From an uncultured Latescibacterota bacterium (GTDB lineage: Bacteria; Latescibacterota; UBA2968), in contig OY282377.1 in the NCBI GenBank assembly GCA_958295785.1, positions 3,534,896 to 3,598,895 of the forward strand: a stretch of DNA of 64,000 nt. The letters run 5' to 3'. Position numbers and translations under genes: made by a program. Below, piece by piece: positions 13,339-61,462 of this stretch (its first letter is position 1; every line of letters starts with the position of its first letter). The notes below the pieces were generated by a model. It searched no databases. It was not told the DNA's origin and was given only the letters and a program-made list of their open reading frames with translations.

Positions 13339-15086
13339 AACCCATGGTGCAAATTTTGGCGGTGCTGTTTTTGGGCGCTGCGCTGATCGCGTTGGGCTGG
13401 GGCGGTTGGCAACGCGAGAAAAAGGATGGGCCGCCGGTTGCCCGCTATGGATTTTACCTGGAGGAAGTCGGCCGGCAAGTCGGGATCGATTTTGTCCATG
13501 AGGCACCTGTTCTAGATGCGAAGTTGGATCATATCATGCCGCTGATCGCGTCTATGGGTGCGGGCGTGTCCGTGGTGGATTACGACCGAGACGGATGGCG
13601 AGACCTGTATGTGACAAACAGCCGGAAGGGGCGTCTAAATCGGCTATATCGCAATTTGGCGGGAAGGGGATTTGAAGATGTGGCCCCGGCACTGGGCATC
13701 GCAGATGTCAACCGAGAAGGCGTGAGCATGGGCGCGGTGTGGGGCGATAGCGACAACGATGGGTTTGAAGATTTGTTTTTGTACAAATGGGGCCGCCCCG
13801 AGTTGTTTCGCAATTTGGCGGGCAAGGCGTTTGAGCGCGTAACAAAAACAGCAGGTCTGCCGGACTGGATCAATGCCGGAAGCGCGATTTGGGTCGATTA
13901 CGACTGCGACGGATATCTCGACCTTTTTGTGGCGGGCTATTGGCCCGAATCCCTCAATCTGTGGGACTTGCAGACCACGCGGATAATGCCAGAAAGTTTT
14001 GAATACGCCAATAATGGGGGGCGAAAATATTTGTTGCGAAACCGCGGCGACGGGACATTTGAAGATGTGACGGCAAGGGTCGGAATTGCCAGCAGGCGGT
14101 GGACCCTAGCCGTGGGCGCAGCGGATTTGAACGGTTCGGGGTTTCCCGATTTGTTTTTGTCCAATGACTACGGGCGTTCAGAGTTGTACGTGAACGAGGG
14201 CGGCGAGCGGTTTGTCGACCGAGGAGAACAAGCCGGGGTGGGCCGCCAGCCAAAAAGTGGCATGAATGCCGCGTTTGGCGATGTGTTCAACCGGGGCGAT
14301 TTGGCAATTTACGAGACCAATATTTCTCAGGCAGGCGTTCTCATTCAGGGAAATAATCTGTGGGTGGCAACGGCGCACATGCCCCTGCGATTTGAAAATC
14401 TGGCCGGGGCGATGGGCGTGGCCCTGGGCGGGTGGAGTTTTGGCGCGCAGTTTGGGGATTTGAACAACGACGGGATGTTGGATCTTTTTGTCACCAATGG
14501 ATATGTTTCGGCAAACGGACGCGAAAGCTATTGGTACGATTTTTCCCAAGTCGCAGGCGGGCACAGCGCGATTATTTCAGATGCGAAAAATTGGCCGCCG
14601 ATACGGGGCAGAAGCCTAGCAGGCCATCAAACCCAGCGCGTTTGGATCAATGATGGCGCAGGACAATTCGCCGAAGTGGCCCGGTCCGTGGGCGTTCGGG
14701 AGCGATTCGACGGGCGCGCCGTGGCGCTGGTCGATCTGTGGAACAGGGGCGTGCTAGACGTGGTGGTGGGCAATCAGCGGGGGCGTCTTTTGGTGTATCG
14801 CAACACCGTGCGGCCCCAGGCGAACTGGATTGGATTCGATCTGATCGGGCAACAGAGCAATCGCAGTGCGATAGGCGCGCGGGTGCAGGTGTTTTGGCGC
14901 GATAAGATGCAGGTGCAAGAAGTGTTGGGCGGCAGCGGCTATGCCTCGCAAAATCAACGACCACGCCACTTTGGCCTAGGCGAGGGCGCGGGGGTTGACA
15001 GCATTGCAATACGCTGGCCGTCGGGAAGGGTGCATAAGCTCTACGCGCCCGATATTCGGCAGGTGCATCGAATTTTGGAGCCTTGA
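13335..15086 (+). CDS. FG-GAP repeat / ASPIC-UnbV (CRTAC1-like) protein
   Basis: N-terminal TM/signal, repeated DxDxDGxxDL motifs, UnbV-like C-terminus (IRWPSGRV). Confidence 0.65.
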   Translation: MKPMVQILAVLFLGAALIALGWGGWQREKKDGPPVARYGFYLEEVGRQVGIDFVHEAPVLDAKLDHIMPLIASMGAGVSVVDYDRDGWRDLYVTNSRKGRLNRLYRNLAGRGFEDVAPALGIADVNREGVSMGAVWGDSDNDGFEDLFLYKWGRPELFRNLAGKAFERVTKTAGLPDWINAGSAIWVDYDCDGYLDLFVAGYWPESLNLWDLQTTRIMPESFEYANNGGRKYLLRNRGDGTFEDVTARVGIASRRWTLAVGAADLNGSGFPDLFLSNDYGRSELYVNEGGERFVDRGEQAGVGRQPKSGMNAAFGDVFNRGDLAIYETNISQAGVLIQGNNLWVATAHMPLRFENLAGAMGVALGGWSFGAQFGDLNNDGMLDLFVTNGYVSANGRESYWYDFSQVAGGHSAIISDAKNWPPIRGRSLAGHQTQRVWINDGAGQFAEVARSVGVRERFDGRAVALVDLWNRGVLDVVVGNQRGRLLVYRNTVRPQANWIGFDLIGQQSNRSAIGARVQVFWRDKMQVQEVLGGSGYASQNQRPRHFGLGEGAGVDSIAIRWPSGRVHKLYAPDIRQVHRILEP

Positions 15087-47100: not shown

Positions 47101-47316
47101 TCACATTCGTTGTTTGAAGTGTACGCAAAAATAAAATTGGTAGGCGATCATGTCGCGCTTGTGGGCGATGTCTTTGAGCGCGTAAGGCTTGTCGGCGACC
47201 GTGACTTCAACATCCGCTCCGCCGGGGTTCTAGCTGAACTCGTCAGTGAACAGCGTCTGGAGATCAAAGGTCTCCAGATGCTGTTTGACTTTGTTTCTGT
47301 CGAGAGGCGTCGACAT
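47101..47316 (-). pseudogene. Remnant of the N-terminus (approx first 60 codons) of a third PglX-like methyltransferase copy, with an in-frame TAG
   Basis: Translation MSTPLDRNKVKQHLETFDLQTLFTDEFS*NPGGADVEVTVADKPYALKDIAHKRDMIAYQ parallels MNFNRNTVKRHLENFDLQTLFIEELGWDHGGADTEVTIAGKTYALEAIAHKRGMVAYQ; TGG to TAG at 47229-47231. Confidence 0.6.
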
Positions 47317-47344: not shown

Positions 47345-47634
47345 CAGAATACAAATTACGCCCTGCTTTCGCCGTGCTTAGGAGAAGGCCAGCGCGGGAT
47401 TGCTCGATGGGCAGTAGCTTCCCATTTGCGCGATTTATTCCCCTTCGACAACCGGATGGCCGTCTCCACCGCGTTCCGAGTTCCTCGGCTCCGCGTTGGT
47501 GGAGTCGATTTCTGACTCTGTGGAGAGGTCTTGAGTCTCATGGTTTACCTCCTTGAATTGACCCAAGAGGGTCAGCCCTTCATTTAGCTTGGGGATTAGG
47601 GCATTAAAAATTTCATCTAATTCCTGCGGTGATT
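47345..47634. repeat. Direct repeat B copy 2 (functional 3' end of the protease gene and downstream sequence)
   Basis: See copy 1. Confidence 0.7.
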
Positions 47635-48469
47635 TTTCAACTTTTAGACCGATCCTCTCGGCCTCATCCGAGTCAATCACAAATCCGTGCTCGGGATATT
47701 GTTCCACTAAACGACGTGCTATCTTTCTCGATTGTTCATCTGTGTGTTTTGATGATAGCAAACGGATCGCATACTCCTCAGCCACTTGCAAAACTCGTGC
47801 CATTTGTGTGTAATGCACTGCGTCAATATTCTCTATTAAGGGCCGTATAAAATTGGCTGTGTACTCAAGGACAGGCGGCAAAATGGTTTCTATCTTTTTT
47901 CCTGTTCGCCCTAACAACAGCAACATAGTTTGATAGAAAACATTGAGTGCAGCGGCATTTAATCGTTCGAGGGTGTGAACCTCGTCAAGTGCCGACATAA
48001 CATTCTCTCTATCGACATCTCTTATTTGGACATCAAGCGGTCCCAACTCGGCATCTACCCCCAAGTAAATTTGATGTGCGCCGAGGGCAAGAAGTGTGGC
48101 CGCGCTTTTGGCATATCGGGGAATGAGTGCTATGAAACCGGCTCGTCGATTGAAAAGCCGAGCAATCTGATAGGCCACTCGAGTATCCCCGCCCGATGAA
48201 TCTATCAGTAGCAACGCTGGTTGTTCTGAGGATATCTGGCTCTTTCTTTCCAAAAATTCATGTTGCAACCCATCAGAAATTGGTTCTTCGCCAAAGAGGA
48301 ATAGCCAAAGCGGTAGATTCTCAAACTGCAATTGAGAGGGCAGGACAGCGTTCAAAGATCTCACGCTCATCTCTTGCAACTGACATAGCAGACGAGCAAA
48401 CTCGTCATCCAGTTCGGCTTTTTCGCCACAATATATGTCAGCGGTGTATTTCCGTTGGTTTTGGGACAT
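47435..48469 (-). CDS. SDH-family / ClpP-fold serine protease
   Basis: ClpP-like active-site context LLLIDSSGGDTRVAYQIARLF (compare ClpP INSPGG), approx 344 aa. Confidence 0.55.
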   Translation of the reverse strand: MSQNQRKYTADIYCGEKAELDDEFARLLCQLQEMSVRSLNAVLPSQLQFENLPLWLFLFGEEPISDGLQHEFLERKSQISSEQPALLLIDSSGGDTRVAYQIARLFNRRAGFIALIPRYAKSAATLLALGAHQIYLGVDAELGPLDVQIRDVDRENVMSALDEVHTLERLNAAALNVFYQTMLLLLGRTGKKIETILPPVLEYTANFIRPLIENIDAVHYTQMARVLQVAEEYAIRLLSSKHTDEQSRKIARRLVEQYPEHGFVIDSDEAERIGLKVEKSPQELDEIFNALIPKLNEGLTLLGQFKEVNHETQDLSTESEIDSTNAEPRNSERGGDGHPVVEGE

Positions 48470-48572
48470 TCGTCTTCCTCCTTATCAGCACGTTTCTGAC
48501 AATTTAGCCGCCTAACCGAGATTTGTCAAGACAGGAACTTCTCATCATGCCTTGCTCGTGCATTGCTATTGC

Positions 48573-48806
48573 TCACCGCCCCATGCGATACTTGATGTCG
48601 TAGTTGATGATGAAGTCCAATTCCTCGTCCGTGAAGCCGTAGTGTTTGGCCAACACGCGGTCAATTTCGTCGATAATAGGCTTTGATTCCCTATGGTAGT
48701 ACTCATAATCCGTTTGCTTAGTTCCAACAAATTTTTTGTTTTCTTCCAAGTGCAGTTCAAGAGACCTGCCAAGCTTGATGAGTGACTTTCTATTAGTTTT
48801 AGACAT
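48573..48806 (-). pseudogene. Displaced C-terminal fragment (77 codons) of methyltransferase copy 1, separated from the gene body by the IS
   Basis: Begins exactly at the IS left end; tail ...IDEIDRVLAKHYGFTDEELDFIINYDIKY parallels the copy-2 C-terminus ...HEIDEWISTTFSIKPERVEEI. Confidence 0.6.
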
Positions 48807-49900
48807 TTAGGACTTACGCATGCTGAGTTAAAAAAGGGTGCAATTCCGTAAAATTTATCACTTTGAGGAGGTATCAATGCGCCACCCGACGCGTTTGGAT
48901 TACTGTCAGTATCTGCTTAGCAGTCCCCTCAACTATACCCTGACCCATTTCGCCGACCATAGCGAAGGGTTCAGTCATGATATGATCAACCGCTATCTCG
49001 CCGGTGCGCGTATCCCACCCCGCTTGGTGTGGGAACACGTCAAAGACCACATCGCGTTGACGCCCAAAGGCTATGTGATCTTTGATGACACGGTTTTAGA
49101 CAAGCGACACGCACGCAAGATCGCGTTAGTGCGCCGTCAATATAGCGGCAACGCCCAAGGCGTCATCAACGGCATCGGGGTGGTCACATGTGTCTATGTC
49201 AATCCGCAAGAGGATCGGTTCTGGCTGATTGACTATCGGATTTATGACCCGCAAGGCGATGGCAAAACCAAATTGGATCATCTCAAGGACATGCTCTCTG
49301 GGTTGGTCTATCAGAAGCGCCTTCCTTTTACCGGGGTCTTGATGGACAGTTGGTATGCGACCAAAACGGTCATGCTACACATAGAGCAGATGCAAAAAAC
49401 CTATTATTGTCCCCTCAAGACGAACCGGCGCGTGGACGATTCGGCAGGCACAATCCCCTACCAGCGCGTAGATAGCTTAACTTGGACTCAAGAGGAGCGC
49501 AAACAAGGCAAGTCCATTAAAATCAGAGGGTTCCCCAAAGACCACAAAGTGAAATTATTCCGGGTGGCGTCTTCTGCCAGACGCACGGCGTATGTCGTGA
49601 CCAACGACCATGCTCAAAACGATTCTTCAGTGGTACAACAGGTGTGTCACCAAAGATGGAAAATTGAGCAATTTCACCGCGAAGTCAAACAAGTGACCGG
49701 GCTTGAAAAGTGTCAATGCCGGTTGGCACGCATTGTACGAAATCATATTGGGTGTGCGATGTTAGTTTGGATAAGACTCGAGCAGGTGGCCTATCAAACA
49801 GGACAAACCATTTATCAAGTCAAATACCGAGGGCTGGCTGACTTCTTGAGACAACAACTCAAAGCACCTCATATTCCAATGGTGATTGCGTAAGTCCTAA
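48807..49900 (+). mobile_element. Insertion sequence (approx 1.09 kb) with 13-bp perfect terminal inverted repeats TTAGGACTTACGC / GCGTAAGTCCTAA, inserted into methyltransferase copy 1
   Basis: Inverted repeats at 48807-48819 and 49888-49900; flanking CAT/ATG triplet appears duplicated (48804-48806 and 49901-49903). Confidence 0.7.
48877..49893 (+). CDS. DDE transposase (IS4/IS5/IS701-superfamily-like)
   Basis: GAGGAGG RBS; candidate DDE residues in VIFDDTVLDK, VLMDSWYATK and RWKIEQFHREVKQ. Confidence 0.65.
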   Translation: MRHPTRLDYCQYLLSSPLNYTLTHFADHSEGFSHDMINRYLAGARIPPRLVWEHVKDHIALTPKGYVIFDDTVLDKRHARKIALVRRQYSGNAQGVINGIGVVTCVYVNPQEDRFWLIDYRIYDPQGDGKTKLDHLKDMLSGLVYQKRLPFTGVLMDSWYATKTVMLHIEQMQKTYYCPLKTNRRVDDSAGTIPYQRVDSLTWTQEERKQGKSIKIRGFPKDHKVKLFRVASSARRTAYVVTNDHAQNDSSVVQQVCHQRWKIEQFHREVKQVTGLEKCQCRLARIVRNHIGCAMLVWIRLEQVAYQTGQTIYQVKYRGLADFLRQQLKAPHIPMVIA

Positions 49901-52900
49901 CATTTTTCCCAAGTCAATACGAAAATCGCTCACGTCATCAACAGTCAAATGCCAGCAGTCTCCTTTAGTTTCCCAATGCCAAAAGAACAAGCTGGAATTA
50001 AACACACCTGACAACTCCTCTGGTTGAATTCCTTTTGCCGGATAATAAGTTTTAAACTCCCGTGACTTCTTGGAGGCAAGAAAACACTTTACCCACATCA
50101 TCAATCTAATGTTCAAATAGAATGGTTGAGAATCAGTTTTGCGATTAGAGTACAACGTATTCAGTGGGAGAATGTCCCTGTTGATTTTGCTGATAATGGA
50201 TTCTTCAAGTTCCGTTGCAAACTTACGAATAAATCCCTTTCGATAGTTTAGTCTGTTGTAATCCAGGTTGTTAAAAAGATGATTCCTTTCACTGTCGGGA
50301 GCTCTTCCATAAAAGTGAGTAAATCCTGTGGAATGGATGGCAGAATTTCCCTTAGTGCAAAGTATGATTGAAAGTTTCTGATGTACCCCAAAAAATAATG
50401 TAGATGGTCTGTCAGCATAATTACTGATATGCAACATAGGATAGGTTGCGGTTATGACATTTCGAGCTTGATTCATCCTCTTGGTTGACACCCAAGAGAT
50501 AGGAATTATCCACCCCGCATTTCTTTGACCGAGCGAGGTTCCCCGCTCAAGCACGAAGGCGTAAAGGCTGCCGCAGGATTCGGTTTCGTAGCCTTTGACG
50601 GTGTAGCCTTCTTTGGTTTTTTTGACTTTGCTGTATTCCACATACGGCGGATTCCCAATAATCACATCAAAGCCACCCTTGTGCATGATGCCGTAGAACT
50701 CGACGAACCAATGAAACGGCTGATGGCTGTCGCGCCATCGCTGATACGCTCGCCGGCTCTTGGGCTTGACGCCGTATTCACCGGCCAAATACTCGTCCAA
50801 CTCATCGCGCAGATTAGTGAGGCGTTTCCGCAATTTCAACTTCGCGCTGGCAAACGCACTGGCGTCCATCCCAGGTTTCGTCTGCATCTGGCGGAACTGG
50901 CGAAAGGCGCGGTCGGCTTTCTCGGCGCGTTCCTCGATCTGGGGAAGCGACAGTTGCTTGATCAGGTCGCTACTCAATGCTTCCTTCACTTGCGCGAGCG
51001 AAGTGAAGCCGACGAGCGTGTTCCCGGCGCGGACGTTGAAGTCGATGTCGGGCAACGGCTCGATCTGCTCGTAAGTATCCAACTGCGCGACGAGTTTGAG
51101 GAACAGCCGCAGCTTGCAGATTTCCACCGCCTCCTCCATGATATCCACGCCGTAGAGATTGCCGATGATGATCGACTTGAGAATGAAATAGCGTTCGCTG
51201 GCGTGCTCTTCAACCTGTTGCAACACTTGGCGAAAATCGCGCAGTTTCTCGGGGCGGTGCTTGCGGTTCAAGCGTTCCAAGTCGTCGAGGAAACCGCGCA
51301 TGGCCTCCAAGCAGGCGACGTAGAGCGGCTCCAAAATGTTGAGCGCGGCGAATAGGAATGCGCCCGAGCCGCAGGTGGGATCGAGGACGGAGACCGCGTT
51401 GATCGCCTTCCAAAAAGCGTGCACCAGTTCCGGCCCCTCGCTGCTCGCAATGACGTCTTGGGCAAACTTTTCGATGTCCAAATTGTACGTGATCAGATCG
51501 TTGATCGACGCGATTGCACCAGCGGCGAGTTTGGCGCGGATGTCCTCATAGCGTTGGCGGCGGGCAATGTGCTCGCGCCACGTCTCGGTCGGCAGAGCGT
51601 ATTCGGGCGGGGCCGCTTCGTTCCAGCCATCGCGCTTTGCTATGTCGTCCAGACCGGCGGCGATCTCCGGCGGCAGGGCGCGTTTTTCGGCAAGGTCCGC
51701 GTTGTTGTGCAGATCGTAGGTGATGCCGTGACGCACCGCCTCGTGAAAGTAGCGATCCGGGGCGTCCGACAGCAACCGCCATATCCAGCCATCGGGCGAG
51801 AAGGCGATGGCGCATGCCTTTCGCGCTCGGTCGAACAAGAACGGAATGATGCTGTTGCGGCTAATGTAGCCGGTAATGTCTTCCTTGGTGTAGTACGCCC
51901 CCATCTGTTTCTGGTTGATGTACTTCTCGAAAATGTAGCCGAGCACATCGGGGTTGATCTCGTTGTCGTTGCGGAGCGGCCGGTCGTCGAGATGCCATTG
52001 GTACGCGTCGAAGAACGCGAAAATCTGTTCAAAGGCTTCGTCGGGAATGTGAATTTCCGGGTTGTCCCGCTCCAAGTCATGCACCTCGAACAAGCCGCCG
52101 TTGAGATAGGGGACTTTGCCGATCAGGGCGACCAAGGCGGGGGCGCGGTCAGCTTCGGGCTGTCCCAAGCCCTCGTGAAACAGCCGCAACAGGAACAGCC
52201 GGTAAAAGCCGAGGAAGTTGCCCTCGCCCTGTTGCTGGCGCACCCGTTCCAAACGGTCGCGCAGATAGTTTGGGTTGTTGTCGAGAAAACCGCGCTTCTG
52301 GATGAAGTAAATGAACATCATGCGATTGAGCATCAGCGAGGCGTACCACTCGCGGTCAGTCAAATTTTCAATGCCCTCGATGAAGTCCAGAAACGCGCTG
52401 TGCTCTTTCTTGAACCGGTCATAGAATCGCTTGGCGACTTTCTCCACATCGAAAGCCGCCCGCACTCGGCTCGTCACATCGACAAGGGTGAGGGCTTCTT
52501 CCTCCTCCAGCGCGAAGGCGATTTGCTCTAACTTCTGGACCAGGGATTCGCCCGATTGCCCCCGATCATAGATATGCTGTCGAGACCGATCGGGGCGACC
52601 CGGTTCGCGCTTGACCCATTGCCAATACTGGGCATCGGCGCGTGCGTAGATGATGAGGTGTTCGCGGACGGTCTTGGCGACATTCCGCTCGATCTTCTGC
52701 CGAGTGGGGTAATCGGGCAAGGCCCTGTCCGAATCCGCCATGTATTGATAGGCAACCATACCGCGCTTGTGGGCGATGGCCTCGAGCGCGTAAGTCTTAC
52801 CGGCGATAGTAACCTCGGTATCCGCTCCGCCGTGGTCCCAGCCGAGTTCTTCAATGAAGAGCGTCTGAAGATCGAAGTTCTCCAGATGTCGTTTGACTGT

Positions 52901-52918
52901 GTTTCTGTTGAAATTCAT
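49859..52918 (-). CDS. PglX/DrmMI-like (Eco57I-superfamily) N6-adenine DNA methyltransferase, copy 1; TRD truncated by the IS, so likely inactivated
   Basis: Motif I VLDPTCGSGAFL, motif IV IIGNPPYV; last 13 aa (LGLTQSPLEYEVL) are encoded by the IS right end. Confidence 0.75.
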   Translation of the reverse strand: MNFNRNTVKRHLENFDLQTLFIEELGWDHGGADTEVTIAGKTYALEAIAHKRGMVAYQYMADSDRALPDYPTRQKIERNVAKTVREHLIIYARADAQYWQWVKREPGRPDRSRQHIYDRGQSGESLVQKLEQIAFALEEEEALTLVDVTSRVRAAFDVEKVAKRFYDRFKKEHSAFLDFIEGIENLTDREWYASLMLNRMMFIYFIQKRGFLDNNPNYLRDRLERVRQQQGEGNFLGFYRLFLLRLFHEGLGQPEADRAPALVALIGKVPYLNGGLFEVHDLERDNPEIHIPDEAFEQIFAFFDAYQWHLDDRPLRNDNEINPDVLGYIFEKYINQKQMGAYYTKEDITGYISRNSIIPFLFDRARKACAIAFSPDGWIWRLLSDAPDRYFHEAVRHGITYDLHNNADLAEKRALPPEIAAGLDDIAKRDGWNEAAPPEYALPTETWREHIARRQRYEDIRAKLAAGAIASINDLITYNLDIEKFAQDVIASSEGPELVHAFWKAINAVSVLDPTCGSGAFLFAALNILEPLYVACLEAMRGFLDDLERLNRKHRPEKLRDFRQVLQQVEEHASERYFILKSIIIGNLYGVDIMEEAVEICKLRLFLKLVAQLDTYEQIEPLPDIDFNVRAGNTLVGFTSLAQVKEALSSDLIKQLSLPQIEERAEKADRAFRQFRQMQTKPGMDASAFASAKLKLRKRLTNLRDELDEYLAGEYGVKPKSRRAYQRWRDSHQPFHWFVEFYGIMHKGGFDVIIGNPPYVEYSKVKKTKEGYTVKGYETESCGSLYAFVLERGTSLGQRNAGWIIPISWVSTKRMNQARNVITATYPMLHISNYADRPSTLFFGVHQKLSIILCTKGNSAIHSTGFTHFYGRAPDSERNHLFNNLDYNRLNYRKGFIRKFATELEESIISKINRDILPLNTLYSNRKTDSQPFYLNIRLMMWVKCFLASKKSREFKTYYPAKGIQPEELSGVFNSSLFFWHWETKGDCWHLTVDDVSDFRIDLGKMLGLTQSPLEYEVL

Positions 52919-52958
52919 GGTGAAACCTCTACTGCGAAACTACGAAAAACGCGAAAAG
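50650..52958. repeat. Approx 2.3-kb near-identical direct repeat (copy 1) covering the methyltransferase 5' leader through the NPPY motif
   Basis: Matches 55195-57503; identity degrades at the low-coordinate boundary. Confidence 0.8.
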
Positions 52959-53016
52959 GCGCAAAAAAAACAATGCCCATTCTTCAGTCCTTTCGCGCCT
53001 TTCACGTTTTTCGTAG
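52936..53016. repeat. Long imperfect hairpin (22-bp arms CTACGAAAAACGCGAAAAGGCGC / GCGCCTTTCACGTTTTTCGTAG) between the HNH gene and methyltransferase copy 1
   Basis: Arms are near-perfect reverse complements separated by approx 35 nt; same motif family recurs at 57481-57668 and 58058. Confidence 0.45.
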
Positions 53017-53040
53017 TCCCTTTTCGCCCCATGCGATTTC

Positions 53041-54009
53041 TCAGGCCAACTCGACTCCCCGCAACTCACTGCCGAGTGAAAGGTTATCCGGTGCAGGAAA
53101 CCACTCGTCATTGGCTGGCAGAAGTAGTTCACTTCTGAGTTGCTCTTCGTACCTACTCAGCCCATCGGCTCTGCCCATTTTTTTTAAGTGCTTAACTCTA
53201 GACGAGTTCAGATGGATTGAGTAGTCATCCCGAACATAGAGTAGTCCGGTATCGAAAGACCGATGATGCAAGGAGCAAAGAGCCAAGCCATTGCTGACTA
53301 CATCATGCCCTTGTAGATGGGCGTGTGGCACAATATGAGCGGCATCTACAAGGCCCAGTTGAATCCCGCACATTGCACACCTGTAGGAGTACGCTTCTAA
53401 CACCGCTTGCCTGAATCGTGGGTTTCGAGGATACGCAGTACTAGTTACCTGTATTCTCTGTCGCTTGACCGCGATTGGTCGCGCAAGGAATTGCTTATAG
53501 TCTCGGGCTATCCTTTGCAATGCCCGATCAGTATCTCGGTGAAGTGCTGCCTGGTTCTCCACATACAAACCAATGAGATCGGGGCGAAACATGATCACGA
53601 TTTGCCCATCGGTGTCGGTATGAGTTGATAATCCCTGTGCGGCAGCCTCCTGCATGCGCGATAACCGAGTATAGAGAGAAAATCGCTGGACTCTCGATTT
53701 CCGGTCCAAAAGTCTGTCTGGATCCCATGCGCTGAATGTATTTACGTCTGCGGAAAATCCGAGAACGAGAACCTTGTCCTCCCTTTGTCTATTCCTGAGT
53801 TTCTCAGGCAAGTCGCCTGGACATTGGATCCGATATTCATCCGGCGTACGGCTAGTAGAATGGATGTTGCCAATGAAAACAGTAACGAACTTGTCTTTGA
53901 AGAAAAAGCGGTACGGATTGTCTCTGCCATCAAAATAGACGAGGTCTGTGTGTTGTCGAAAAGCGTCGAACAATGCATGGAACAGATCCATCTTGTTTAG
54001 TATGACCAT
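53041..54009 (-). CDS. HNH endonuclease with approx 200-aa uncharacterised N-terminal domain
   Basis: C-terminal HNH motif CAMCGIQLGLVDAAHIVPHAHLQGHDVVSNGLALCSLHHRSFD. Confidence 0.7.
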   Translation of the reverse strand: MVILNKMDLFHALFDAFRQHTDLVYFDGRDNPYRFFFKDKFVTVFIGNIHSTSRTPDEYRIQCPGDLPEKLRNRQREDKVLVLGFSADVNTFSAWDPDRLLDRKSRVQRFSLYTRLSRMQEAAAQGLSTHTDTDGQIVIMFRPDLIGLYVENQAALHRDTDRALQRIARDYKQFLARPIAVKRQRIQVTSTAYPRNPRFRQAVLEAYSYRCAMCGIQLGLVDAAHIVPHAHLQGHDVVSNGLALCSLHHRSFDTGLLYVRDDYSIHLNSSRVKHLKKMGRADGLSRYEEQLRSELLLPANDEWFPAPDNLSLGSELRGVELA

Positions 54010-54037
54010 TTCAAATTATCCTCAATCGTTATGCCGA

Positions 54038-57000
54038 CTAAATTTCTTCAACGCGCTCAGGTTTAATCGAGAATGTCGTCGATATCCACTCGTCAATTTC
54101 GTGCAGACGACCATCGGCGGAAAAATCCATGGGACTCGGCGGCAGGAAACGCTCTCTTAGAGATGGGGGGATGTTCTTCTCTCCGGCTTCGTAGTTGATA
54201 CTACGTACCAAAGAAATAAAAAAAAATAATTCTTTCAAATCAGCCCAACCTGCACCCAGTCCCGAAAGAAATACAACATCGGCCTTTCTCGTCAGTGAAA
54301 GCAACTTTTGATAGTTGAAATTTCCAACGTACTTACCTGCGTTTTTCTTAAAGACAAGCGCGGAATATCTTTGTTGGTGTAGTAATTCTCCAATGGTAGC
54401 CAGCCTGCGTAAATGATCTTTTGGAAACGAAGCGATGGGCGCGAGGAGGTCCGTGAGTAACCAGTTTGTAACGTGGAATCCATCCCCTCGCGTTAGCCAA
54501 TACCAAAAGCAGGCGTCGCCTGCTGTACTCGCGAGCGCGGCAAATGCTATCTCATCAGAGGGCAGTGTCAGCCAGCCGCACTGAGCGGGATCGAGCACAC
54601 ATCCGTCATCTACGTGCAATACGGGTGGCTGTTCAAGATATGTAGAAATGAAATTCCGCGCTGTGGGCGAAAATCCCAATCTGACTGTTGCACCATCTGT
54701 AGCGCAGGGCGAGGTTGGCTTTGAGGGAGATGACTCGATGTGCAATGCCAACAGTTTTGCACAGTAGCGATTCGCCAAGCGGGGAATGCCGAAATTTTCG
54801 GCGGGGACGCCATTAGCTACCTTGTTATAGGTTATGTTGTTCAGCAGAAAAGTCCGAAACGCCGAGCGCCATCTAAAGAGACGAGTGGCGAACGAATCGC
54901 CATCCGATGGGGAACTAAGCCAGATTGTGCATCGCTGGCTTACGCCGGAAAAGAGGGTTGCGGGCCCATTGTCGAAAGAAGAAAACCAATGCGTCCCCCT
55001 GTTGGCGAGTTGCCCCCGGAGGTCAGAAAACTCAAAGCTGAAGGTCACAGAAAGGGGAACAATAACCCCGTAGCGTCCGCACTGATTGGTGATGCGGTGG
55101 GATTGCATGACCACGTATCCATAAATGTCCGGGAATTTCAGGGACTTGGGCGACTGCACAACGTATTCCAGTGACTTGCAGTTGATATACGGCGGGTTCC
55201 CGATCACCACATCAAAGCCGCCCTTGTGCATGATGCCGTAGAACTCGACGAACCAATGAAACGGCTGGTGGCTGTCGCGCCATCGCTGATACGCTCGCCG
55301 GCTCTTGGGCTTGACGCCGTATTCACCGGCCAAATACTCGTCCAATTCGTCGCGCAGATTGGTGAGGCGTTTCCGCAATTCCGACTTCGCGCTGGCAAAC
55401 GCACTGGCATCCATCCCAGGTTTCGTCTGCATGGCGTGGAACTGGCGAAAGGCGTGGTCGGCTTTCTCGGCGCGTTTCTCGATCTGGGGAAGCGACAGTT
55501 GCTTGATCAGGTCGCTACTCAATGCTTCCTTCACTTGCGCGAGCGACGTGAAGCCGACGAGCGTGTTCCCGGCGCGGACGTTGAAGTCGATGTCGGGCAA
55601 CGGCTCGATCTGCTCGTAAGTATCCAACTGCGCGACGAGTTTGAGGAACAGCCGTAGCTTGCAGATTTCCACCGCCTCCTCCATGATATCCACGCCATAG
55701 AGATTGCCGATGATGATCGACTTGAGAATGAAATAGCGTTCGCTGGCGTGCTCTTCAACCTGTTGCAACACTTGGCGGAAGTCGCACAGTTTCTCGGGAT
55801 GGTGCTTGCGGTTCGAGCGTTCCAAGTCGTCGAGGAAACCGCGCATGGCCTCCAAGCAGGCGACGTAGAGCGGCTCCAAAATGTTGAGCGCGGCGAATAG
55901 GAATGCGCCCGAGCCGCAGGTGGGATCGAGGACGGAGACCGCGTTGATCGCCTTCCAAAAAGCGCGAATCAGTTCCGGCCCCTCGCTGCTCGCAATGACG
56001 TCTTGGGCAAACTTTTCGATGTCCAAATTGTACGTGATCAGATCGTTGATCGACGCGATTGCACCAGCGGCGAGTTTGGCGCGGATGTCCTCATAGCGTT
56101 GGCGGCGGGCGATGTGCTCGCGCCACGTCTCGGTCGGCAGAGCGTATTCGGGCGGGGCCGCTTCGTTCCAGCCATCGCGCTTTGCTATGTCGTCCAGACC
56201 GGCGGCGATCTCCGGCGGCAGGGCGCGTTTTTCGACAAGGTCCGCGTTGTTGTGCAGATCGTAGGTGATGCCGTGACGCACCGCCTCGTGAAAGTAGCGA
56301 TCCGGGGCGTCCGACAGCAACCGCCATACCCAGCCATCGGGCGAGAAGGCGATGGCGCATGCCTTTCGCGCTCGGTCGAACAAGAACGGAATGATGCTGT
56401 TGCGGCTAATGTAGCCGGTGATGTCTTCCTTGGTGTAGTACGCCCCCATCTGTTTCTGGTTGATGTACTTCTCGAAAATGTAGCCGAGCACATCGGGGTT
56501 GATCTCGTTGTCGTTGCGGAGCGGCCGGTCGTCGAGATGCCATTGGTACGCGTCGAAGAACGCGAAAATCTGTTCAAAGGCTTCGTCGGGAATGTGAATT
56601 TCCGGGTGGTCCCGCTCCAAGTCATGCACCTCGAACAAGCCGCCATTGAGATAGGGGACTTTGCCGATCAGGGCGACCAAGGCGGGGGCGCGGTCGGCTT
56701 CGGGCTGTCCCAAGCCCTCGTGAAACAGCCGCAACAGGAACAGCCGGTAAAAGCCGAGGAAGTTGCCCTCGCCCTGTTGCTGGCGCACCCGTTCCAAACG
56801 GTCGCGCAGATAGTTTGGGTTGTTGTCGAGAAAACCGCGCTTCTGGATGAAGTAAATGAACATCATGCGATTGAGCATCAGCGAGGCGTACCACTCGCGG
56901 TCAGTCAAATTTTCAATGCCCTCGATGAAGTCCAGAAACGCGCTGTGCTCTTTCTTGAACCGATCATAGAATCGCTTGGTGACTTTCTCCACATCGAAAG

Positions 57001-57463
57001 CCGCCCGCACTCGGCTCGTCACATCGACAAGGGTGAGGTCTTCTTCCTCCTCCAGCGCGAAGGCGATTTGCTCTAACTTCTGGACCAGGGATTCGCCCGA
57101 TTGCCCCCGATCATAGATATGCTGTCGAGACCGATCGGGGCGACCCGGTTCGCGCTTGACCCATTGCCAATACTGGGCATCGGCGCGTGCGTAGATGATG
57201 AGGTGTTCGCGGACGGTCTTGGCGACATTCCGCTCGATCTTCTGCCGAGTGGGGTAATCGGGCAAGGCCCTGTCCGAATCCGCCATGTATTGATAGGCAA
57301 CCATACCGCGCTTGTGGGCGATGGCCTCGAGCGCGTAAGTCTTACCGGCGATAGTAACCTCGGTATCCGCTCCGCCGTGGTCCCAGCCGAGTTCTTCAAT
57401 GAAGAGCGTCTGAAGATCGAAGTTCTCCAGATGTCGTTTGACTGTGTTTCTGTTGAAATTCAT
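54038..57463 (-). CDS. PglX/DrmMI-like (Eco57I-superfamily) N6-adenine DNA methyltransferase, copy 2 (1141 aa, apparently intact)
   Basis: Motif I VLDPTCGSGAFL, motif IV VIGNPPYI; N-terminal approx 745 aa approx 97-98% identical (by eye) to copy 1; C-terminal approx 390 aa unrelated. Confidence 0.8.
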   Translation of the reverse strand: MNFNRNTVKRHLENFDLQTLFIEELGWDHGGADTEVTIAGKTYALEAIAHKRGMVAYQYMADSDRALPDYPTRQKIERNVAKTVREHLIIYARADAQYWQWVKREPGRPDRSRQHIYDRGQSGESLVQKLEQIAFALEEEEDLTLVDVTSRVRAAFDVEKVTKRFYDRFKKEHSAFLDFIEGIENLTDREWYASLMLNRMMFIYFIQKRGFLDNNPNYLRDRLERVRQQQGEGNFLGFYRLFLLRLFHEGLGQPEADRAPALVALIGKVPYLNGGLFEVHDLERDHPEIHIPDEAFEQIFAFFDAYQWHLDDRPLRNDNEINPDVLGYIFEKYINQKQMGAYYTKEDITGYISRNSIIPFLFDRARKACAIAFSPDGWVWRLLSDAPDRYFHEAVRHGITYDLHNNADLVEKRALPPEIAAGLDDIAKRDGWNEAAPPEYALPTETWREHIARRQRYEDIRAKLAAGAIASINDLITYNLDIEKFAQDVIASSEGPELIRAFWKAINAVSVLDPTCGSGAFLFAALNILEPLYVACLEAMRGFLDDLERSNRKHHPEKLCDFRQVLQQVEEHASERYFILKSIIIGNLYGVDIMEEAVEICKLRLFLKLVAQLDTYEQIEPLPDIDFNVRAGNTLVGFTSLAQVKEALSSDLIKQLSLPQIEKRAEKADHAFRQFHAMQTKPGMDASAFASAKSELRKRLTNLRDELDEYLAGEYGVKPKSRRAYQRWRDSHQPFHWFVEFYGIMHKGGFDVVIGNPPYINCKSLEYVVQSPKSLKFPDIYGYVVMQSHRITNQCGRYGVIVPLSVTFSFEFSDLRGQLANRGTHWFSSFDNGPATLFSGVSQRCTIWLSSPSDGDSFATRLFRWRSAFRTFLLNNITYNKVANGVPAENFGIPRLANRYCAKLLALHIESSPSKPTSPCATDGATVRLGFSPTARNFISTYLEQPPVLHVDDGCVLDPAQCGWLTLPSDEIAFAALASTAGDACFWYWLTRGDGFHVTNWLLTDLLAPIASFPKDHLRRLATIGELLHQQRYSALVFKKNAGKYVGNFNYQKLLSLTRKADVVFLSGLGAGWADLKELFFFISLVRSINYEAGEKNIPPSLRERFLPPSPMDFSADGRLHEIDEWISTTFSIKPERVEEI

Positions 57464-57503
57464 GGTGAAACCTCTACTGCGAAACTACGAAAAACGCGAA
57501 AAA
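55195..57503. repeat. Approx 2.3-kb near-identical direct repeat (copy 2)
   Basis: See 50650-52958. Confidence 0.8.
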
Positions 57504-57526
57504 GGCAAGGCCATAGCCCCGCTTTG

Positions 57527-57668
57527 ATTTTCGCGTCCTTTCGCGCTTTTCGTAGTGGAAAATACGATCATCTATAACTACGAAAGAGAAAAAAAAGACA
57601 AAGCCCACTCCTCGCCCCTTTCGCGTCCTTCCGCGCTTTTCGTAGTGGAAAATACGATCATCCTATAA
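57527..57668. repeat. Tandem approx 90-bp units containing palindromic motif TTTCGCGTCCTTTCGCGCTTTTCGTAGTGGAAAATACGATCATC in the methyltransferase-2 leader
   Basis: Units at 57527-57578 and 57620-57668 plus partial third copy at 58058-58085; CTACGAAA/TTTCGTAG inverted cores. Confidence 0.5.
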
Positions 57669-57686: not shown

Positions 57687-58052
57687 TACAATTCGTTGAC
57701 GAAACGTTCGTATTCTAATTTTGGGTGATAGCCGAAATTGACGAGCAGGCCGAGTTTCATACCTGTTGATTTCAGGTAATTGATGATTTGGCGCGATGTC
57801 GGTCTTGATTTCCACAATTATTGTGTCGAAACAGAGAAAATCAGGTAGGTAGAACTGCTTCAACGCCTGCCCTTTGTAACGAAGTTTCAATTTTGTCTTT
57901 TCCTTGTGCGGGATATCCGAAGAAGTGAATTCCATTGCGAGGCACTCTTGATAAACAGCTTCGAGAAAGCCGGATCCTTTTTCTTTGTACACTTCAAAGC
58001 AGGCACCGATAATCCGGTAACTTTCTTCCTGATAGACAATTTTTCCAGTCAT
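57687..58052 (-). pseudogene. GxxExxY-family (PD-(D/E)XK-like) protein gene with an internal frameshift or small deletion
   Basis: N-part MTGKIVYQEESYRIIGACFEVYKEKGSGFLEAVYQEC...IIVEIKTDIA in one frame; C-part QIINYLKSTGMKLGLLVNFGYHPKLEYERFVNEL in another; ATG overlaps helicase stop as ATGA. Confidence 0.6.
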
Positions 58053-61000
58053 AATTTTCGCGTCCTTTCGCGCTTTTCGTCGTTCATCAGACCCATAGAG
58101 CAGATAATGCGCGGCTCTTGGCGTTCGTCTTCTTCGTGCATGATGCAAAGCCGGTCGTCATCTCTGAGCGCGATAACCAATTGCGCGAGGGCCTCGTCGG
58201 AGATGCTGCTACGCAACTGGCGGTTCAGCGTATCCACCGCCGTTTGGCGCAGGGGATAGCGGTAAATGTCTTCAATTGTACGCCGCAGCGAATCGGTATC
58301 GAACAACGTGCCTTTGACGTTTTCCGCATAGCTCTTGAGCCTTTCATAAGCGCGAAACCGCGCACCGGATGGCCGGCCGAGATGACCGCCGACCTGCTTT
58401 TCCTCACGGGCGATATGTTCTGCGGCTTTGCGAACCAAATCGTGGTGGGTCTCGTGGCGCGGGAGGGCCGGCGTATCGGGCACGCATGCGGCGGCGTGCA
58501 AAATCTCGAATTGACTTTCGGTCACGCTATTGCCATCGCGATTCATCCACGCCAAGGCATCGTGCCCCTGCGCTGTACGCATATAAACCAGCGCGCCTTC
58601 GGGCCGCTGTGGCGTTTCCGGATATGCCATTGATGAATGCACCACGGATGGCATCGCTTCAATTTTCCGCTCGAGCGATGGATCGGCTGTTGTCGCGTTT
58701 TTCCAAATCTGATACGCATACGAGGCGAGATCGACATCCGTCTCGTCGTCGCTGTCGAGAATCCCCGCCTTTTCGTTGTAGAGGTCGAGCACGGCCCGTT
58801 GATCCTCATCCTCGAAAAACGCCTCGTCCGTTCCCATCACCTCGGCATTGTCGCGGAGGCGCGTCCGAACGCGGGCGCGAAGTCGGATCAAGCGTTCAAT
58901 GCCCTCGGCAGGCAAAAAGGAGCAGCACAAAATATCTCGCGCCTGTTGACCGATGCGGTCCACGCGCCCGGCCCGTTGAATCAAGCGGATAATCGCCCAC
59001 GGCAAATCGTAATTGACAACGATGGCGCAGTCTTGCAGGTTTTGCCCCTCACTGAGCACGTCGGTTGCGACCAGCACGCGCAACTCGCCTCTAGATGAGA
59101 CCCAAGCCGTCTTGTCGTTGCTCTTTGGACTGAACCGCCACGCGAGTTCCGTCGGGTTCGCCATGTCCCCAGTCGCGGCGGCTATCCCGGACACGCCGCG
59201 TGCTTTTAGCTCCATCTCCAAATAGCGCACCGTGTCGGCGAACTGCGTAAAGACCAGAATTTTGCGGTCGGGATGTTCGTCCATGAGCAGGACTTCCAAG
59301 GCGCGGAGTTTCGCGTCTTCAGCCGCCCGCCACGCGCCGAACTGCGCCAACAAATTGAGCAGCGTCTCGGTGTCGGCGACCAAGTTCCTGCGAAGGGCGT
59401 CGCCAAAATGATGCGAGGCCAACCACCGAAACCGCCTTGTGTAGGTGTTGGCAAAGCGTGCGTAGATCGCGGCAGCGCGGTTGCGAAAATCCCTTTCGGC
59501 TCTTAGCGGCGTCGGCTCTGCGGGGGCCTCATTCTCCTCGTCATCCGCATCAAAAAAATCCCCGATAGTCTGATCGGCGTCCTCGTCAAAAGACTGCGGA
59601 TCCAAGAGTCCCGCATCTGTCGTCCCTATCGGAAGCGGCAGGTCATTTTCAAGGGCATACAAAAAAATGAAGTTCCGCAGAACGTGCCGTTCAACCGACA
59701 GCAAGAAGGCGTGGCCGCTGCTCTCCAAGCGTTTGAACAAATTGGTTCGGCAAAAACCCATCAGCCGCTTGCCCGCGCGCGACAAATCGTCCAGCACCTT
59801 CTTTTCTCTCGGCGTGGGTGGCATAGGCGGCGACGCCCCGACGTAGTTGCCGAGTCCATAGCGCGGCAGTTCCAAGCTGTTTATGGCGTCGATCACGTCG
59901 TTTGCAAATAGCCGGGCGTACTGATCGTCAATGTCGAACGGAATCGTCTTTGGAACCCGAGTCGGAAAATACGACCGCGTGCCATCTTCAAAGGTCAGGT
60001 ACTTGCGACCACTGTGCGGATCCGTGTCGGCGTAGTGTGCACGAATAAAACTGCGCGTCCGGCGCACGAGATATAAGCGCATGAGCTCGCGCCAGTCGTC
60101 CGCGTACTCGGATTTTTCAAACGCGGATAGAGACCGCACAGACGCTTGGTGCCGGCGGATGAACTCGGTTTCGCCGATCTCCTGCAACATGCGCTCTGGG
60201 CGAATGCCCAAGTCCTCGTCTTCGGGCACAAACAAGCGGAGTTGGCTGGACAGATCGAGATACGTTTTGTTGTAGGGCGTCGCGGACAGCAGAATACACT
60301 TGCTGTCGTTTTCCCAGATGTATTCTCGGATGGCCCGGTAGCGTTTGCCCTCGCGGTTTCTCAGGTTGTGGCTTTCGTCGATGATCACCAACCGATACCG
60401 GCGCAGGTCGGGCAGTTCGTTGATGACGCGGCTCACCGATAGCACGCGGGCGCGCATGCGGTATTGATCGCGGTAATCCTCCCACATGGAAACGAGGTTT
60501 TTCGGACTTATGATCAGGGTTTCGAGGCCGTGATCGTCTTCGAACACACGCGCCAAGGCCGTCGCCATCAGGGTCTTGCCCAGCCCGACGACATCGCCGA
60601 TGATGACGCCGCCGCGTCGGTTGAGGTGATGCGCGGCGATTTTCACGGCAGCCGTTTGGAAATCGAGGAGTTTGTCGCCAAAATCTTTCGGGATGCGAAA
60701 TTCCGCCAAGCCGGCCCGCGCTTCTTGCGAGAGGTGGTACGCAATCTTGATGTAGATATGGTGCGGCGGGATCAGTTCTTCTCGCGCCCAACTCTCGTCG
60801 ATAATCTCGGCGAGCGCGTCAGAAATATCCACGCACCAGCGGTCATTCCAGCGGTCTTCAAACCACTGGGCGAGTTTTTCGCAGGCGTCTCGGTCGAGCA
60901 CGTCAATGTTGAGTTCGCCCTGTCGGGACAGCCCCGATAGCGTGAGATTGCTGCTTCCGAGATAGCCAACCGTCGGGTTGATCGGATCGGGACGGAATAA

Positions 61001-61462
61001 CAAGTAGAGCTTGGCGTGAAGCGGGTGTTTGAGAAAGAGCTTGACGACGACTTTCTCAGCCTTGATCTGCGCTGCCAACCGCCGCAGACCCGCCTCATCT
61101 TCATTGGTCGGCGCGCCCAAGATCAGTTGTTCCCGAAATTCTTCCGCGAGTCTTTTCTTTATGCGGTGTGCCGCCTGATTGTCGAGCGCGGAGCGATTGC
61201 CCGACAAGCTCGCGGACAGCCGAAACTCGTCGTGTGGCAAGCGTTGCATCCCAACGAGAAGCCGGCAACAATGTCCGACGCCTCCGCGCCACTTTTCCAC
61301 GTATTCATCAATTGACCGCCATCCTCGCAGGTTGAAATAGCCCACGCAAAAATCCGCCCGCTCTGCGATCTCCAGGGTCTCCGCCAACGCGGGATGGAGG
61401 TGTTGTTCAATATTGTCGAAAATTCGGGGCATACATGCTCCTACGGTTTGGAATTGGATCAT
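58049..61462 (-). CDS. Fusion protein: N-terminal PLD-family (single HKD) nuclease-like domain + SNF2-family helicase
   Basis: HKD motif HAKLYLLFRPD...GSSN; SNF2 motifs GLGKTL (I), IIDESHNLRN (II), helicase-C QRAGRVDRIGQ (VI); AGGAGA RBS. Confidence 0.8.
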   Translation of the reverse strand: MIQFQTVGACMPRIFDNIEQHLHPALAETLEIAERADFCVGYFNLRGWRSIDEYVEKWRGGVGHCCRLLVGMQRLPHDEFRLSASLSGNRSALDNQAAHRIKKRLAEEFREQLILGAPTNEDEAGLRRLAAQIKAEKVVVKLFLKHPLHAKLYLLFRPDPINPTVGYLGSSNLTLSGLSRQGELNIDVLDRDACEKLAQWFEDRWNDRWCVDISDALAEIIDESWAREELIPPHHIYIKIAYHLSQEARAGLAEFRIPKDFGDKLLDFQTAAVKIAAHHLNRRGGVIIGDVVGLGKTLMATALARVFEDDHGLETLIISPKNLVSMWEDYRDQYRMRARVLSVSRVINELPDLRRYRLVIIDESHNLRNREGKRYRAIREYIWENDSKCILLSATPYNKTYLDLSSQLRLFVPEDEDLGIRPERMLQEIGETEFIRRHQASVRSLSAFEKSEYADDWRELMRLYLVRRTRSFIRAHYADTDPHSGRKYLTFEDGTRSYFPTRVPKTIPFDIDDQYARLFANDVIDAINSLELPRYGLGNYVGASPPMPPTPREKKVLDDLSRAGKRLMGFCRTNLFKRLESSGHAFLLSVERHVLRNFIFLYALENDLPLPIGTTDAGLLDPQSFDEDADQTIGDFFDADDEENEAPAEPTPLRAERDFRNRAAAIYARFANTYTRRFRWLASHHFGDALRRNLVADTETLLNLLAQFGAWRAAEDAKLRALEVLLMDEHPDRKILVFTQFADTVRYLEMELKARGVSGIAAATGDMANPTELAWRFSPKSNDKTAWVSSRGELRVLVATDVLSEGQNLQDCAIVVNYDLPWAIIRLIQRAGRVDRIGQQARDILCCSFLPAEGIERLIRLRARVRTRLRDNAEVMGTDEAFFEDEDQRAVLDLYNEKAGILDSDDETDVDLASYAYQIWKNATTADPSLERKIEAMPSVVHSSMAYPETPQRPEGALVYMRTAQGHDALAWMNRDGNSVTESQFEILHAAACVPDTPALPRHETHHDLVRKAAEHIAREEKQVGGHLGRPSGARFRAYERLKSYAENVKGTLFDTDSLRRTIEDIYRYPLRQTAVDTLNRQLRSSISDEALAQLVIALRDDDRLCIMHEEDERQEPRIICSMGLMNDEKRERTRKL

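Follow-up and report, generated by a model that had tools for sequence, protein, structure and literature searches.

In a 64,000-nucleotide stretch of DNA from an uncultured Latescibacterota bacterium (contig OY282377.1 of assembly GCA_958295785.1, here called the window), a minus-strand gene encodes a protein of 322 amino acids (aa) with an N-terminal MTaX1 domain and a C-terminal HNH nuclease domain. Analysis of this protein, its homologs and their loci favors, at about even chances, a methylation-sensitive accessory restriction nuclease for which the methylase encoded immediately upstream is the cognate enzyme. In this proposal MTaX1 would be the DNA-binding or discriminating module and the HNH domain the blade. 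The nuclease would cut DNA that does not carry the mark of the immediately upstream methyltransferase, which is ordinary restriction-modification (R-M) logic, and would be an additional, second nuclease of a system whose two genes, for an HKD-SNF2 helicase-nuclease and the methyltransferase, are self-sufficient.

The position, strand and length of the gene (Table 1) agree with a preliminary description of this DNA, and a GAGGA ribosome-binding site is located at 54019-54023, 9 nt 5' of the ATG. Homologs of the protein in a collection of 5.8 billion proteins reached E=1e-207 and numbered 401 at E<=1e-3, so the gene is real and not a chance open reading frame (ORF). Nearly all of the top 120 homologs are 320-340 aa long (mostly about 329 aa) and carry both MTaX1 and HNH_2; the RefSeq label of family members is "HNH endonuclease". 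Residue conservation was measured in two sets, of 26 and 69 sequences. The window protein keeps all the family-invariant residues (P32, N48, E58, R60, Q62, G84, S111, Y149, H157 and the Cys, His and Asn residues of the HNH motif), and in every defining feature that could be tested the predicted product is a member of the MTaX1 + HNH_2 family. A scan around the HNH gene revealed no promoter-like excess over background and no minus-strand terminator nearby, and the gene is probably co-transcribed with the long methyltransferase gene upstream.

The HNH_2 profile (PF13391) matched C-terminal to MTaX1 with 43.4 bits against a cut-off of 21. The motif is intact and reads C211-x2-C214, H225, N240, C245-x2-H248-H249. 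H225, N240 and H249 form the catalytic set and C211, C214, C245 and H248 are the zinc ligands, all of which align with those of TagI, and the motif residues are 86-100% conserved in 69 relatives. These results bear out the HNH motif that the preliminary description had placed at the C-terminus; the motif order that it sketched was right as to the HNH itself and departed from the sequence in a trivial way, the last Cys standing before the final His pair. On the evidence of the sequence, the C-terminal domain belongs to the zinc-bearing HNH (beta-beta-alpha-Me) nucleases, is of the HNH_2/TagI type and is intact. The closest solved relative of the HNH domain is TagI (6ghs, E=1.7e-8), and NF045808, an NCBIfam family of phosphorothioate-dependent restriction enzymes, gave a partial match (aa 146-269, 80 bits against a cut-off of 180). 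The two matches point to a common ancestry of the blade and are by themselves silent on the polarity of discrimination.

The N-terminal part, which had been described as matching nothing recognised, contains the Pfam domain MTaX1 ("Methylase-associated X1", PF20296) at aa 45-150 (profile positions 6-111 of 111, 63.8 bits against a cut-off of 25). In an AlphaFold2 model built from a 26-sequence alignment residues 1-170 were confident, with a predicted local distance difference test score of about 84-94 over residues 31-160. The order of secondary-structure elements in the modelled N-domain is that of the alpha-beta-beta-beta-alpha-beta core of restriction-endonuclease-like proteins, and in the model the approximately 170 N-terminal residues fold like a PD-(D/E)xK nuclease of the Hjc/RecU kind. 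On the other hand, the catalytic signature of that fold was not found when the active site was mapped by secondary-structure order: positions 39-41, which open strand 2 and would be the place of the canonical Asp, are variable, and strand 3 reads E58-x-R60-x-Q62 instead of (Asp/Glu)-x-Lys.

An exhaustive search with the N-domain alone revealed MTaX1 in other architectures, including a fusion to GmrSD_N (P0167), fusions to unannotated C-terminal regions of several sizes and proteins with N-termini rich in helix-turn-helix motifs in front of it. P32, R60, Q62, G84 and S111 are invariant across all of these architectures and N48, W95, Y113 and R115 are nearly so, while V, I or N takes the place of E58 in those without the HNH domain. 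Because there is no universal acidic residue and the fused effectors vary, MTaX1 looks like a binding or discriminating module, probably non-catalytic, and not like a second blade. In the same search a protein of 3420 aa (P0159) gave 14 separate matches to N-domain residues 17-57; repeats within the protein or a low-complexity artefact may account for them.

The genomic context of the family was determined in 80 HNH-anchored loci of GTDB species representatives, which came from many bacterial phyla and one archaeal metagenome-assembled genome (MAG). Close loci (n=24) comprised 22 loci at no less than 43% identity together with L060 and L065, and distant loci (n=49) had 30-40% identity. The layout of the close loci is an HKD(PLD)-SNF2 helicase (~1130 aa), a methyltransferase (~1150 aa) and MTaX1-HNH, in this order, co-directional and compact, with the methylase directly upstream of the HNH gene in 24/24 loci and the helicase present in 21/24. 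The distant relatives lack both the helicase and the cassette methylase. Their abutting co-directional neighbours were C5 methylases in 36 and N4/N6 methylases in 21 of 97 cases (57/97), and at least one such methylase abuts the HNH gene in 39/49 loci, typically as a C5 pair or a single N4/N6 enzyme, the latter in about 20 loci. The methylase comes first in the gene order and the genes overlap or are closely spaced. A 15.9-kb Thiothrix plasmid carries a unit of methylase and MTaX1-HNH only, with a 20-nt overlap and no other nuclease, adjoining a RelE/CopG pair; on a Roseivivax plasmid the HNH gene comes after a "restriction endonuclease + methyltransferase" pair. The link to methylases thus extends over three methylation chemistries, and members of the family occur as sole or as second nuclease. 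The preliminary description had asked whether homologs are always adjacent to PglX-like methyltransferases; a linkage to methylases was confirmed, but the distant partners are C5 and N4/N6 enzymes. Neither a non-defence N-domain nor a lack of methylase linkage among the homologs, which it had named together as refuting its proposal, was found.

Since HNH-anchored sampling cannot show whether the HNH gene belongs to the core of the system, 80 metagenomic loci were fetched with an alignment of the cassette methylase. The helicase-methylase pair was nearly universal in these methylase-anchored loci where the contig allows it, and the MTaX1-HNH gene followed the methylase in one of the 80 (L083); therefore the system has a core of two genes, to which the HNH gene is accessory. 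Each of the 24 HNH-bearing cassettes has a target recognition domain (TRD) orthologous to that of the long methylase of the window (40-82% identity, full coverage). At matched divergence, in loci whose methylase core is 52-66% identical to that of the window, this TRD was present in 11 of 11 HNH-bearing cassettes versus 2 of 49 HNH-less ones (Fisher p about 2e-10, kinship ignored). Locus L084, the core of which is 72% identical, has another TRD and is without the HNH gene. The long methylase of the window is approximately 78% identical end-to-end, TRD included, to cassette methylases of Latescibacterota and Nitrospirales MAGs; by this identity it is the orthologous cassette copy, and it is likely to be the cognate methylase of the HNH nuclease. 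Conservation of the HNH-linked TRD extends over several phyla (L001-L022, L060, L065) roughly in step with the catalytic core, which is unusual for TRD-bearing methylases. A comparison of TRD variation with N-domain variation among the HNH-bearing cassettes was uninformative, all 24 sharing one orthologous TRD.

Three functions had been put forward in the preliminary description. The counts of methylase linkage (24/24 and 39/49) and of TRD type (11/11 vs 2/49) make a specificity-linked restriction component the best supported of them. The McrA-like modification-dependent nuclease drew its support from TagI as the nearest solved relative of the HNH domain, and the operonic linkage to methylases argues against it. 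An addiction module is plausible as a corollary, given the persistence of the HNH gene together with an intact methylase in sibling loci (see below) and the position of the Thiothrix unit beside a toxin-antitoxin pair.

Several observations weigh against a methylation-sensitive nuclease served by the upstream methylase. The nearest characterised relatives of its HNH domain, TagI and NF045808, are modification-dependent and so have the opposite polarity, and the HNH part of the AlphaFold2 model is of poor confidence. The HNH-fused subfamily keeps E58 at ~99% and D57 at ~78%, so residual catalysis by MTaX1 is possible, and the MTaX1 core is strongly conserved across partners of three methylation chemistries, which is unusual for a sequence-reading domain. 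Between sibling strains, the ratio of non-synonymous to synonymous substitution rates (dN/dS) of the N-domain is ~1.1, with few substitutions, and could mean relaxed constraint. The TRD comparison carries no phylogenetic correction, and the same counts would result if the HNH gene had been acquired once and then co-inherited; moreover, its HNH-bearing and HNH-less samples came from different databases. A literature search on MTaX1 found no biochemical or genetic test of any member.

The polarity of the blade's relatives raises the alternative of a Type IV enzyme resembling McrA or TagI, in which MTaX1 would read a foreign modified base and the HNH domain would cut, the adjacent methylase being unrelated to its control or leaving a self mark that is not recognised. 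We consider this rather unlikely. The closeness to TagI and the partial NF045808 match would fit such an enzyme, as would the fusion of MTaX1 to GmrSD_N, a domain of Type IV enzymes, and the sole published comment on MTaX1, which proposes discrimination of modified DNA. However, the NF045808 score is far below its cut-off, and no modified-base reader (SRA/SAD, SBD or McrA N-domain) was matched by Pfam in the HNH protein. The family is also tightly linked in operons to methylases of three chemistries, provides the only nuclease in the two-gene methylase + HNH units and is tied to one TRD type, and a cutter of methylated DNA would gain nothing from linkage to a methylase and would risk self-killing. 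That the HNH gene is co-inherited with one TRD type could also mean that MTaX1 is an adaptor docking the HNH domain on the methylase and its TRD or on the helicase complex, with recognition supplied by the methylase as in Type I, III and IIG systems. The conservation of the MTaX1 core whatever the likely target sequence and a methylase that is always adjacent, usually upstream, would agree with an adaptor, and inspection of the N-terminal region of the cassette methylase revealed no recognisable nuclease motif, which suggests a need for nuclease partners. A common docking surface is nevertheless hard to reconcile with three unrelated partner architectures (small C5, small N4/N6 and large TRD-bearing gamma-class enzymes), and the fold relatives Hjc, RecU and I-Ssp6803I are DNA-binding enzymes; an adaptor subunit is thus unlikely.

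The state of the locus suggests another possibility, that the gene has become a passenger in this genome, neutral or in decay, and is intact by chance while insertion sequences (IS) and recombination erode its surroundings. The N-domain dN/dS, a P32L change at a family-invariant site in L082, and the many IS copies, frameshifted genes and gene remnants of the locus would be in line with decay. However, no family-invariant residue is missing from the window copy, its ORF is full-length and its ribosome-binding site is good, the HNH gene is intact in all three siblings where larger neighbours are broken, the HNH domain has a dN/dS of 0.23, and the substitution counts behind these ratios are very small, so that a passenger is improbable. 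Least probable of all, to the point that we give it little credence, is a Vsr-like repair nickase associated with methylases or a free-standing homing endonuclease. The many C5 methylases among the partners would suit a repair nickase, but the family is linked as well to N6-adenine and N4/N6 methylases, for which repair of 5-methylcytosine deamination is irrelevant. The synteny with methylases is stable across phyla, unlike that of mobile homing genes, and MTaX1 is without conserved catalytic acids. No full-length family member was found in 50,697 phage records, and an origin from phage homing endonucleases was rejected on this ground.

The methylation-sensitive restriction nuclease admits a more speculative extension. 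Because the nuclease would carry its own DNA recognition, the cassette could be locked to one TRD, and new specificities would arise by extra methylase copies downstream, as in the window and in L081, and not by TRD replacement. On a helicase-methylase defence system that otherwise exchanges its TRD freely, an independent, methylation-sensitive, sequence-reading nuclease would make loss or replacement of the matched TRD lethal, further specificities could be gained only as additional downstream methylases, and the direct repeats would offer one safe exit. We regard this specificity lock as doubtful though possible. If true, it would explain both a resistance of some R-M-like systems to TRD swapping and the accumulation of extra methylase copies nearby; the window and L081 would capture the state with an added methylase, and the safe exit would be the joint deletion of the nuclease and its TRD via the repeats.

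Table 1. Coordinates of the MTaX1-HNH gene, its domains and the surrounding features in the window
Feature	Position	Strand	Basis and remarks
MTaX1-HNH nuclease gene	53041..54009	-	322 aa; ORF, Pfam MTaX1 and HNH_2; 401 homologs
N-terminal domain, aa 1-175, predicted PD-(D/E)xK-type fold	53485..54009	-	Pfam MTaX1 match at aa 45-150 (53560-53877)
HNH_2 catalytic core, aa 211-259	53233..53379	-	Pfam PF13391, E=3e-11; alignment with TagI (6ghs); residue conservation
Spacer, 28 nt, from upstream methyltransferase stop to HNH ATG	54010..54037	-	Sequence reading
Upstream (long) gamma-class N6-adenine methyltransferase with TRD, 1141 aa	54038..57463	-	Pfam Eco57I/MmeI_Mtase; PADLOC PDLC03628, E about 1e-284
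HKD(PLD)-SNF2 helicase-nuclease, 1137 aa, first cassette gene	58049..61462	-	Pfam PLDc_2, SNF2-rel_dom, Helicase_C; PADLOC 'HKD+Snf2', 3e-48
Downstream (short) methyltransferase paralog, 1019 aa, different TRD	49859..52918	-	BLASTP against the long copy
Direct repeat copy A, 2,322 bp	55187..57508	.	46 nt leader and about 759 codons; blastn
Direct repeat copy B	50642..52964	.	blastn and repeat search
IS701-family insertion sequence	48807..49900	+	Transposase 48838..49893; NCBIfam transpos_IS701_2, E=4e-119
Displaced 3' end of short methylase, ~77 codons, ending ...FTDEELDFIINYDIKYRMGR	48566..48806	-	Frame restored across the IS
Remnant of third methyltransferase 5' end, 57 codons, 63% identical to the other two	47134..47304	-	tblastn

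The HNH gene lies between two methyltransferase paralogs (Table 1), as had been described. The long and short methylases are approximately 97% identical over residues 1-760 and diverge just after NPPY, and the direct repeat that they form (98.2% identity over 2,323 aligned positions, by blastn) includes the 46 nt upstream of each ATG. The point made earlier about recombination between the repeats is correct as to the geometry of the locus: such an event would remove the HNH gene and, with it, the TRD of the upstream copy. The short methylase is truncated, its last 13 codons and stop (49859-49861) lying inside an IS701-family element, the right end of which is at 49900 and which has perfect 14-nt inverted repeats (48807-48820 and 49887-49900). 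In-silico excision of the element brought the short methylase ORF back to 1082-1083 aa with the typical C-terminal tail. The remnant of a third methylase is found also in L082 at 11740-11910 and looks like the scar of an earlier cassette exchange. Upstream the cassette is bounded by an FGGY kinase gene.

Smaller elements occupy the intergenic regions. An 18-nt inverted repeat, ACTACGAAAAACGCGAAA (52939-52956 and 53000-53017, with a 43-nt loop), is located between the HNH stop codon and the start of the downstream methylase; the same 18-mer stands ahead of the upstream methylase at 57484-57501 and could be an operator or an element like the repetitive extragenic palindromes. Between the helicase and the methylase the window has a frameshifted gene of the GxxExxY/PDDEXK_3 family (57687-58051, minus strand), an intact 128-aa homolog of which is encoded at 5734-6120 of L007, and a 44-nt repeat (TTTCGCGTCCTTTCGCGCTTTTCGTAGTGG...) occurs three times around this gene (57529-57572, 57619-57662 and 58056-58099). 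In other cassettes the same slot holds PIN-type toxin genes (L010 6039-6512, L014 4555-5028, L018 5513-6350, L022 5998-6495), in L018 beside an AbrB-like partner, and small selfish genes seem to use it as a landing pad. A gene for a ClpP-like serine protease of the SDH family (47435-48469, minus strand) belongs to a 5.3-kb segment (52937 to 47624) that is absent from L082.

L081 and L082 are two near-identical loci from one metagenome sample, with HNH proteins 97% and 90% identical, respectively, to that of the window. The helicase is intact in the window, multiply frameshifted in L081 and both frameshifted and IS-interrupted in L082, which is syntenic (PhyH-FGGY...DprA). The upstream methylase is intact in the window and in L082 and has a frameshifted 5' end in L081. 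The downstream methylase is IS-disrupted in the window, intact with a third TRD in L081 and missing from L082. In all three the HNH gene is intact and has one or more intact methylases beside it. Of the methylase in L002 there is a TRD fragment left, and the HNH frame of that locus has lost its start codon. The arrangement of two methylases around the HNH gene, present in L081 and absent from L082, gives way to a single methylase in 23 of 24 other cassettes; it therefore varies at the level of strains and does not characterise the family, the slot downstream of the HNH gene being variable. In L081 a TIR_2-domain gene (13415-13975) stands right after the intact second methylase, at the place where the window has the IS and the protease gene. 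The dN/dS between siblings was 0.25 for the methylase, close to that of the HNH domain, in both cases from few substitutions. The L082 HNH allele (10001-10975) looks mosaic, with a synonymous divergence of 0.38 in the C-terminal third against 0.03 in the N-domain. The IS701-family element was found at three positions, in the downstream methylase of the window (48807-49900), at the 3' end of the helicase in L082 (5137-6227) and upstream of the helicase in L081 (1-1056), and looks recently active in the erosion of the defence locus.

The closest genomic relatives are MAGs assigned to Latescibacterota, Nitrospirales, Poribacteria and Entotheonella, and marine sponges are a frequently reported source of some of these lineages. 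The MTaX1-HNH family is large and spread over many phyla, and is recorded as a Pfam entry and a one-line computational comment, the latter being a single sentence in the one relevant publication, a comparative genomics study. A broader keyword search of the literature found no experimental work on the helicase-methylase-HNH cassette. For the window alone, the protein is an ordinary family member. New here are the fold assignment of MTaX1, the residue set R60, Q62 and S111, the nuclease as an optional add-on, and its travelling with one specificity module. Members of the family are a possible source of new sequence-specific HNH nucleases.

Compared with other proteins carrying PF20296 and PF13391, the window protein has the common architecture, the length of ~329 aa typical of the family, the invariant residues and the adjacent methylase, and revealed no protein-level difference. 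What sets the window apart from other MTaX1-HNH loci is the large TRD-bearing gamma-class methylase as partner in an HKD-SNF2 cassette, together with the duplicated downstream methylase. TagI, which joins SRA to HNH, and the ScoMcrA-type enzymes share with it the HNH_2 domain, the Cys/His zinc site and the order of an N-terminal reader and a C-terminal HNH domain, but in the window protein the reader is MTaX1, with a predicted restriction-endonuclease fold, and not SRA or SBD, the NF045808 match is below cut-off and the methylase linkage points to the opposite polarity; its sequence gives no demonstrable membership of this Type IV group. The Hjc and RecU resolvases and I-Ssp6803I, which have the PD-(D/E)xK fold, are 6-10% identical to MTaX1, in which the Asp...(Asp/Glu)-x-Lys triad is not conserved, and the modelled likeness is one of fold and not of function.

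The first two genes of the cassette correspond to ATP-dependent R-M-like systems that combine an HKD-endonuclease/superfamily 2 (SF2) helicase with an N6-methyltransferase (for example those with PbeA-type effectors). The HKD-endoDNase, Swi2/Snf2 helicase and N6-methyltransferase of Type-2 BREX-related systems (PMC12839542) are also in the cassette; those systems are defined by a DUF499 AAA+ ATPase and a stand-alone DUF3780 gene (PMC12839542), neither of which was matched among the 8 locus ORFs scanned, and the assignment was rejected. DISARM was likewise rejected, the locus having partial, domain-level matches to DrmD and DrmMI only and neither DrmA nor DrmB (the DUF1998 helicase pair), which in DISARM accompany DrmD/DrmMI/DrmC. 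The descriptions of HKD-SF2 R-M-like and BREX-related systems do not include an MTaX1-HNH third gene. On the other hand, Type II R-M pairs with an HNH endonuclease resemble the family in several respects. The REBASE-derived PADLOC model of Type II HNH enzymes fits the MTaX1-HNH protein in its HNH part only, and cleavage specificity of the family is a prediction. The likeness lies in the methylase-first operon, the nuclease of ~330 aa and the two-gene plasmid units beside toxin-antitoxin modules; paired C5 methylases, as seen at MTaX1-HNH loci, are in turn a feature of Type II systems with asymmetric sites. In a Type II pair the cognate methylase is adjacent and the nuclease can be the sole one, and the Thiothrix plasmid unit appears, from its gene content, to be arranged in just this way.

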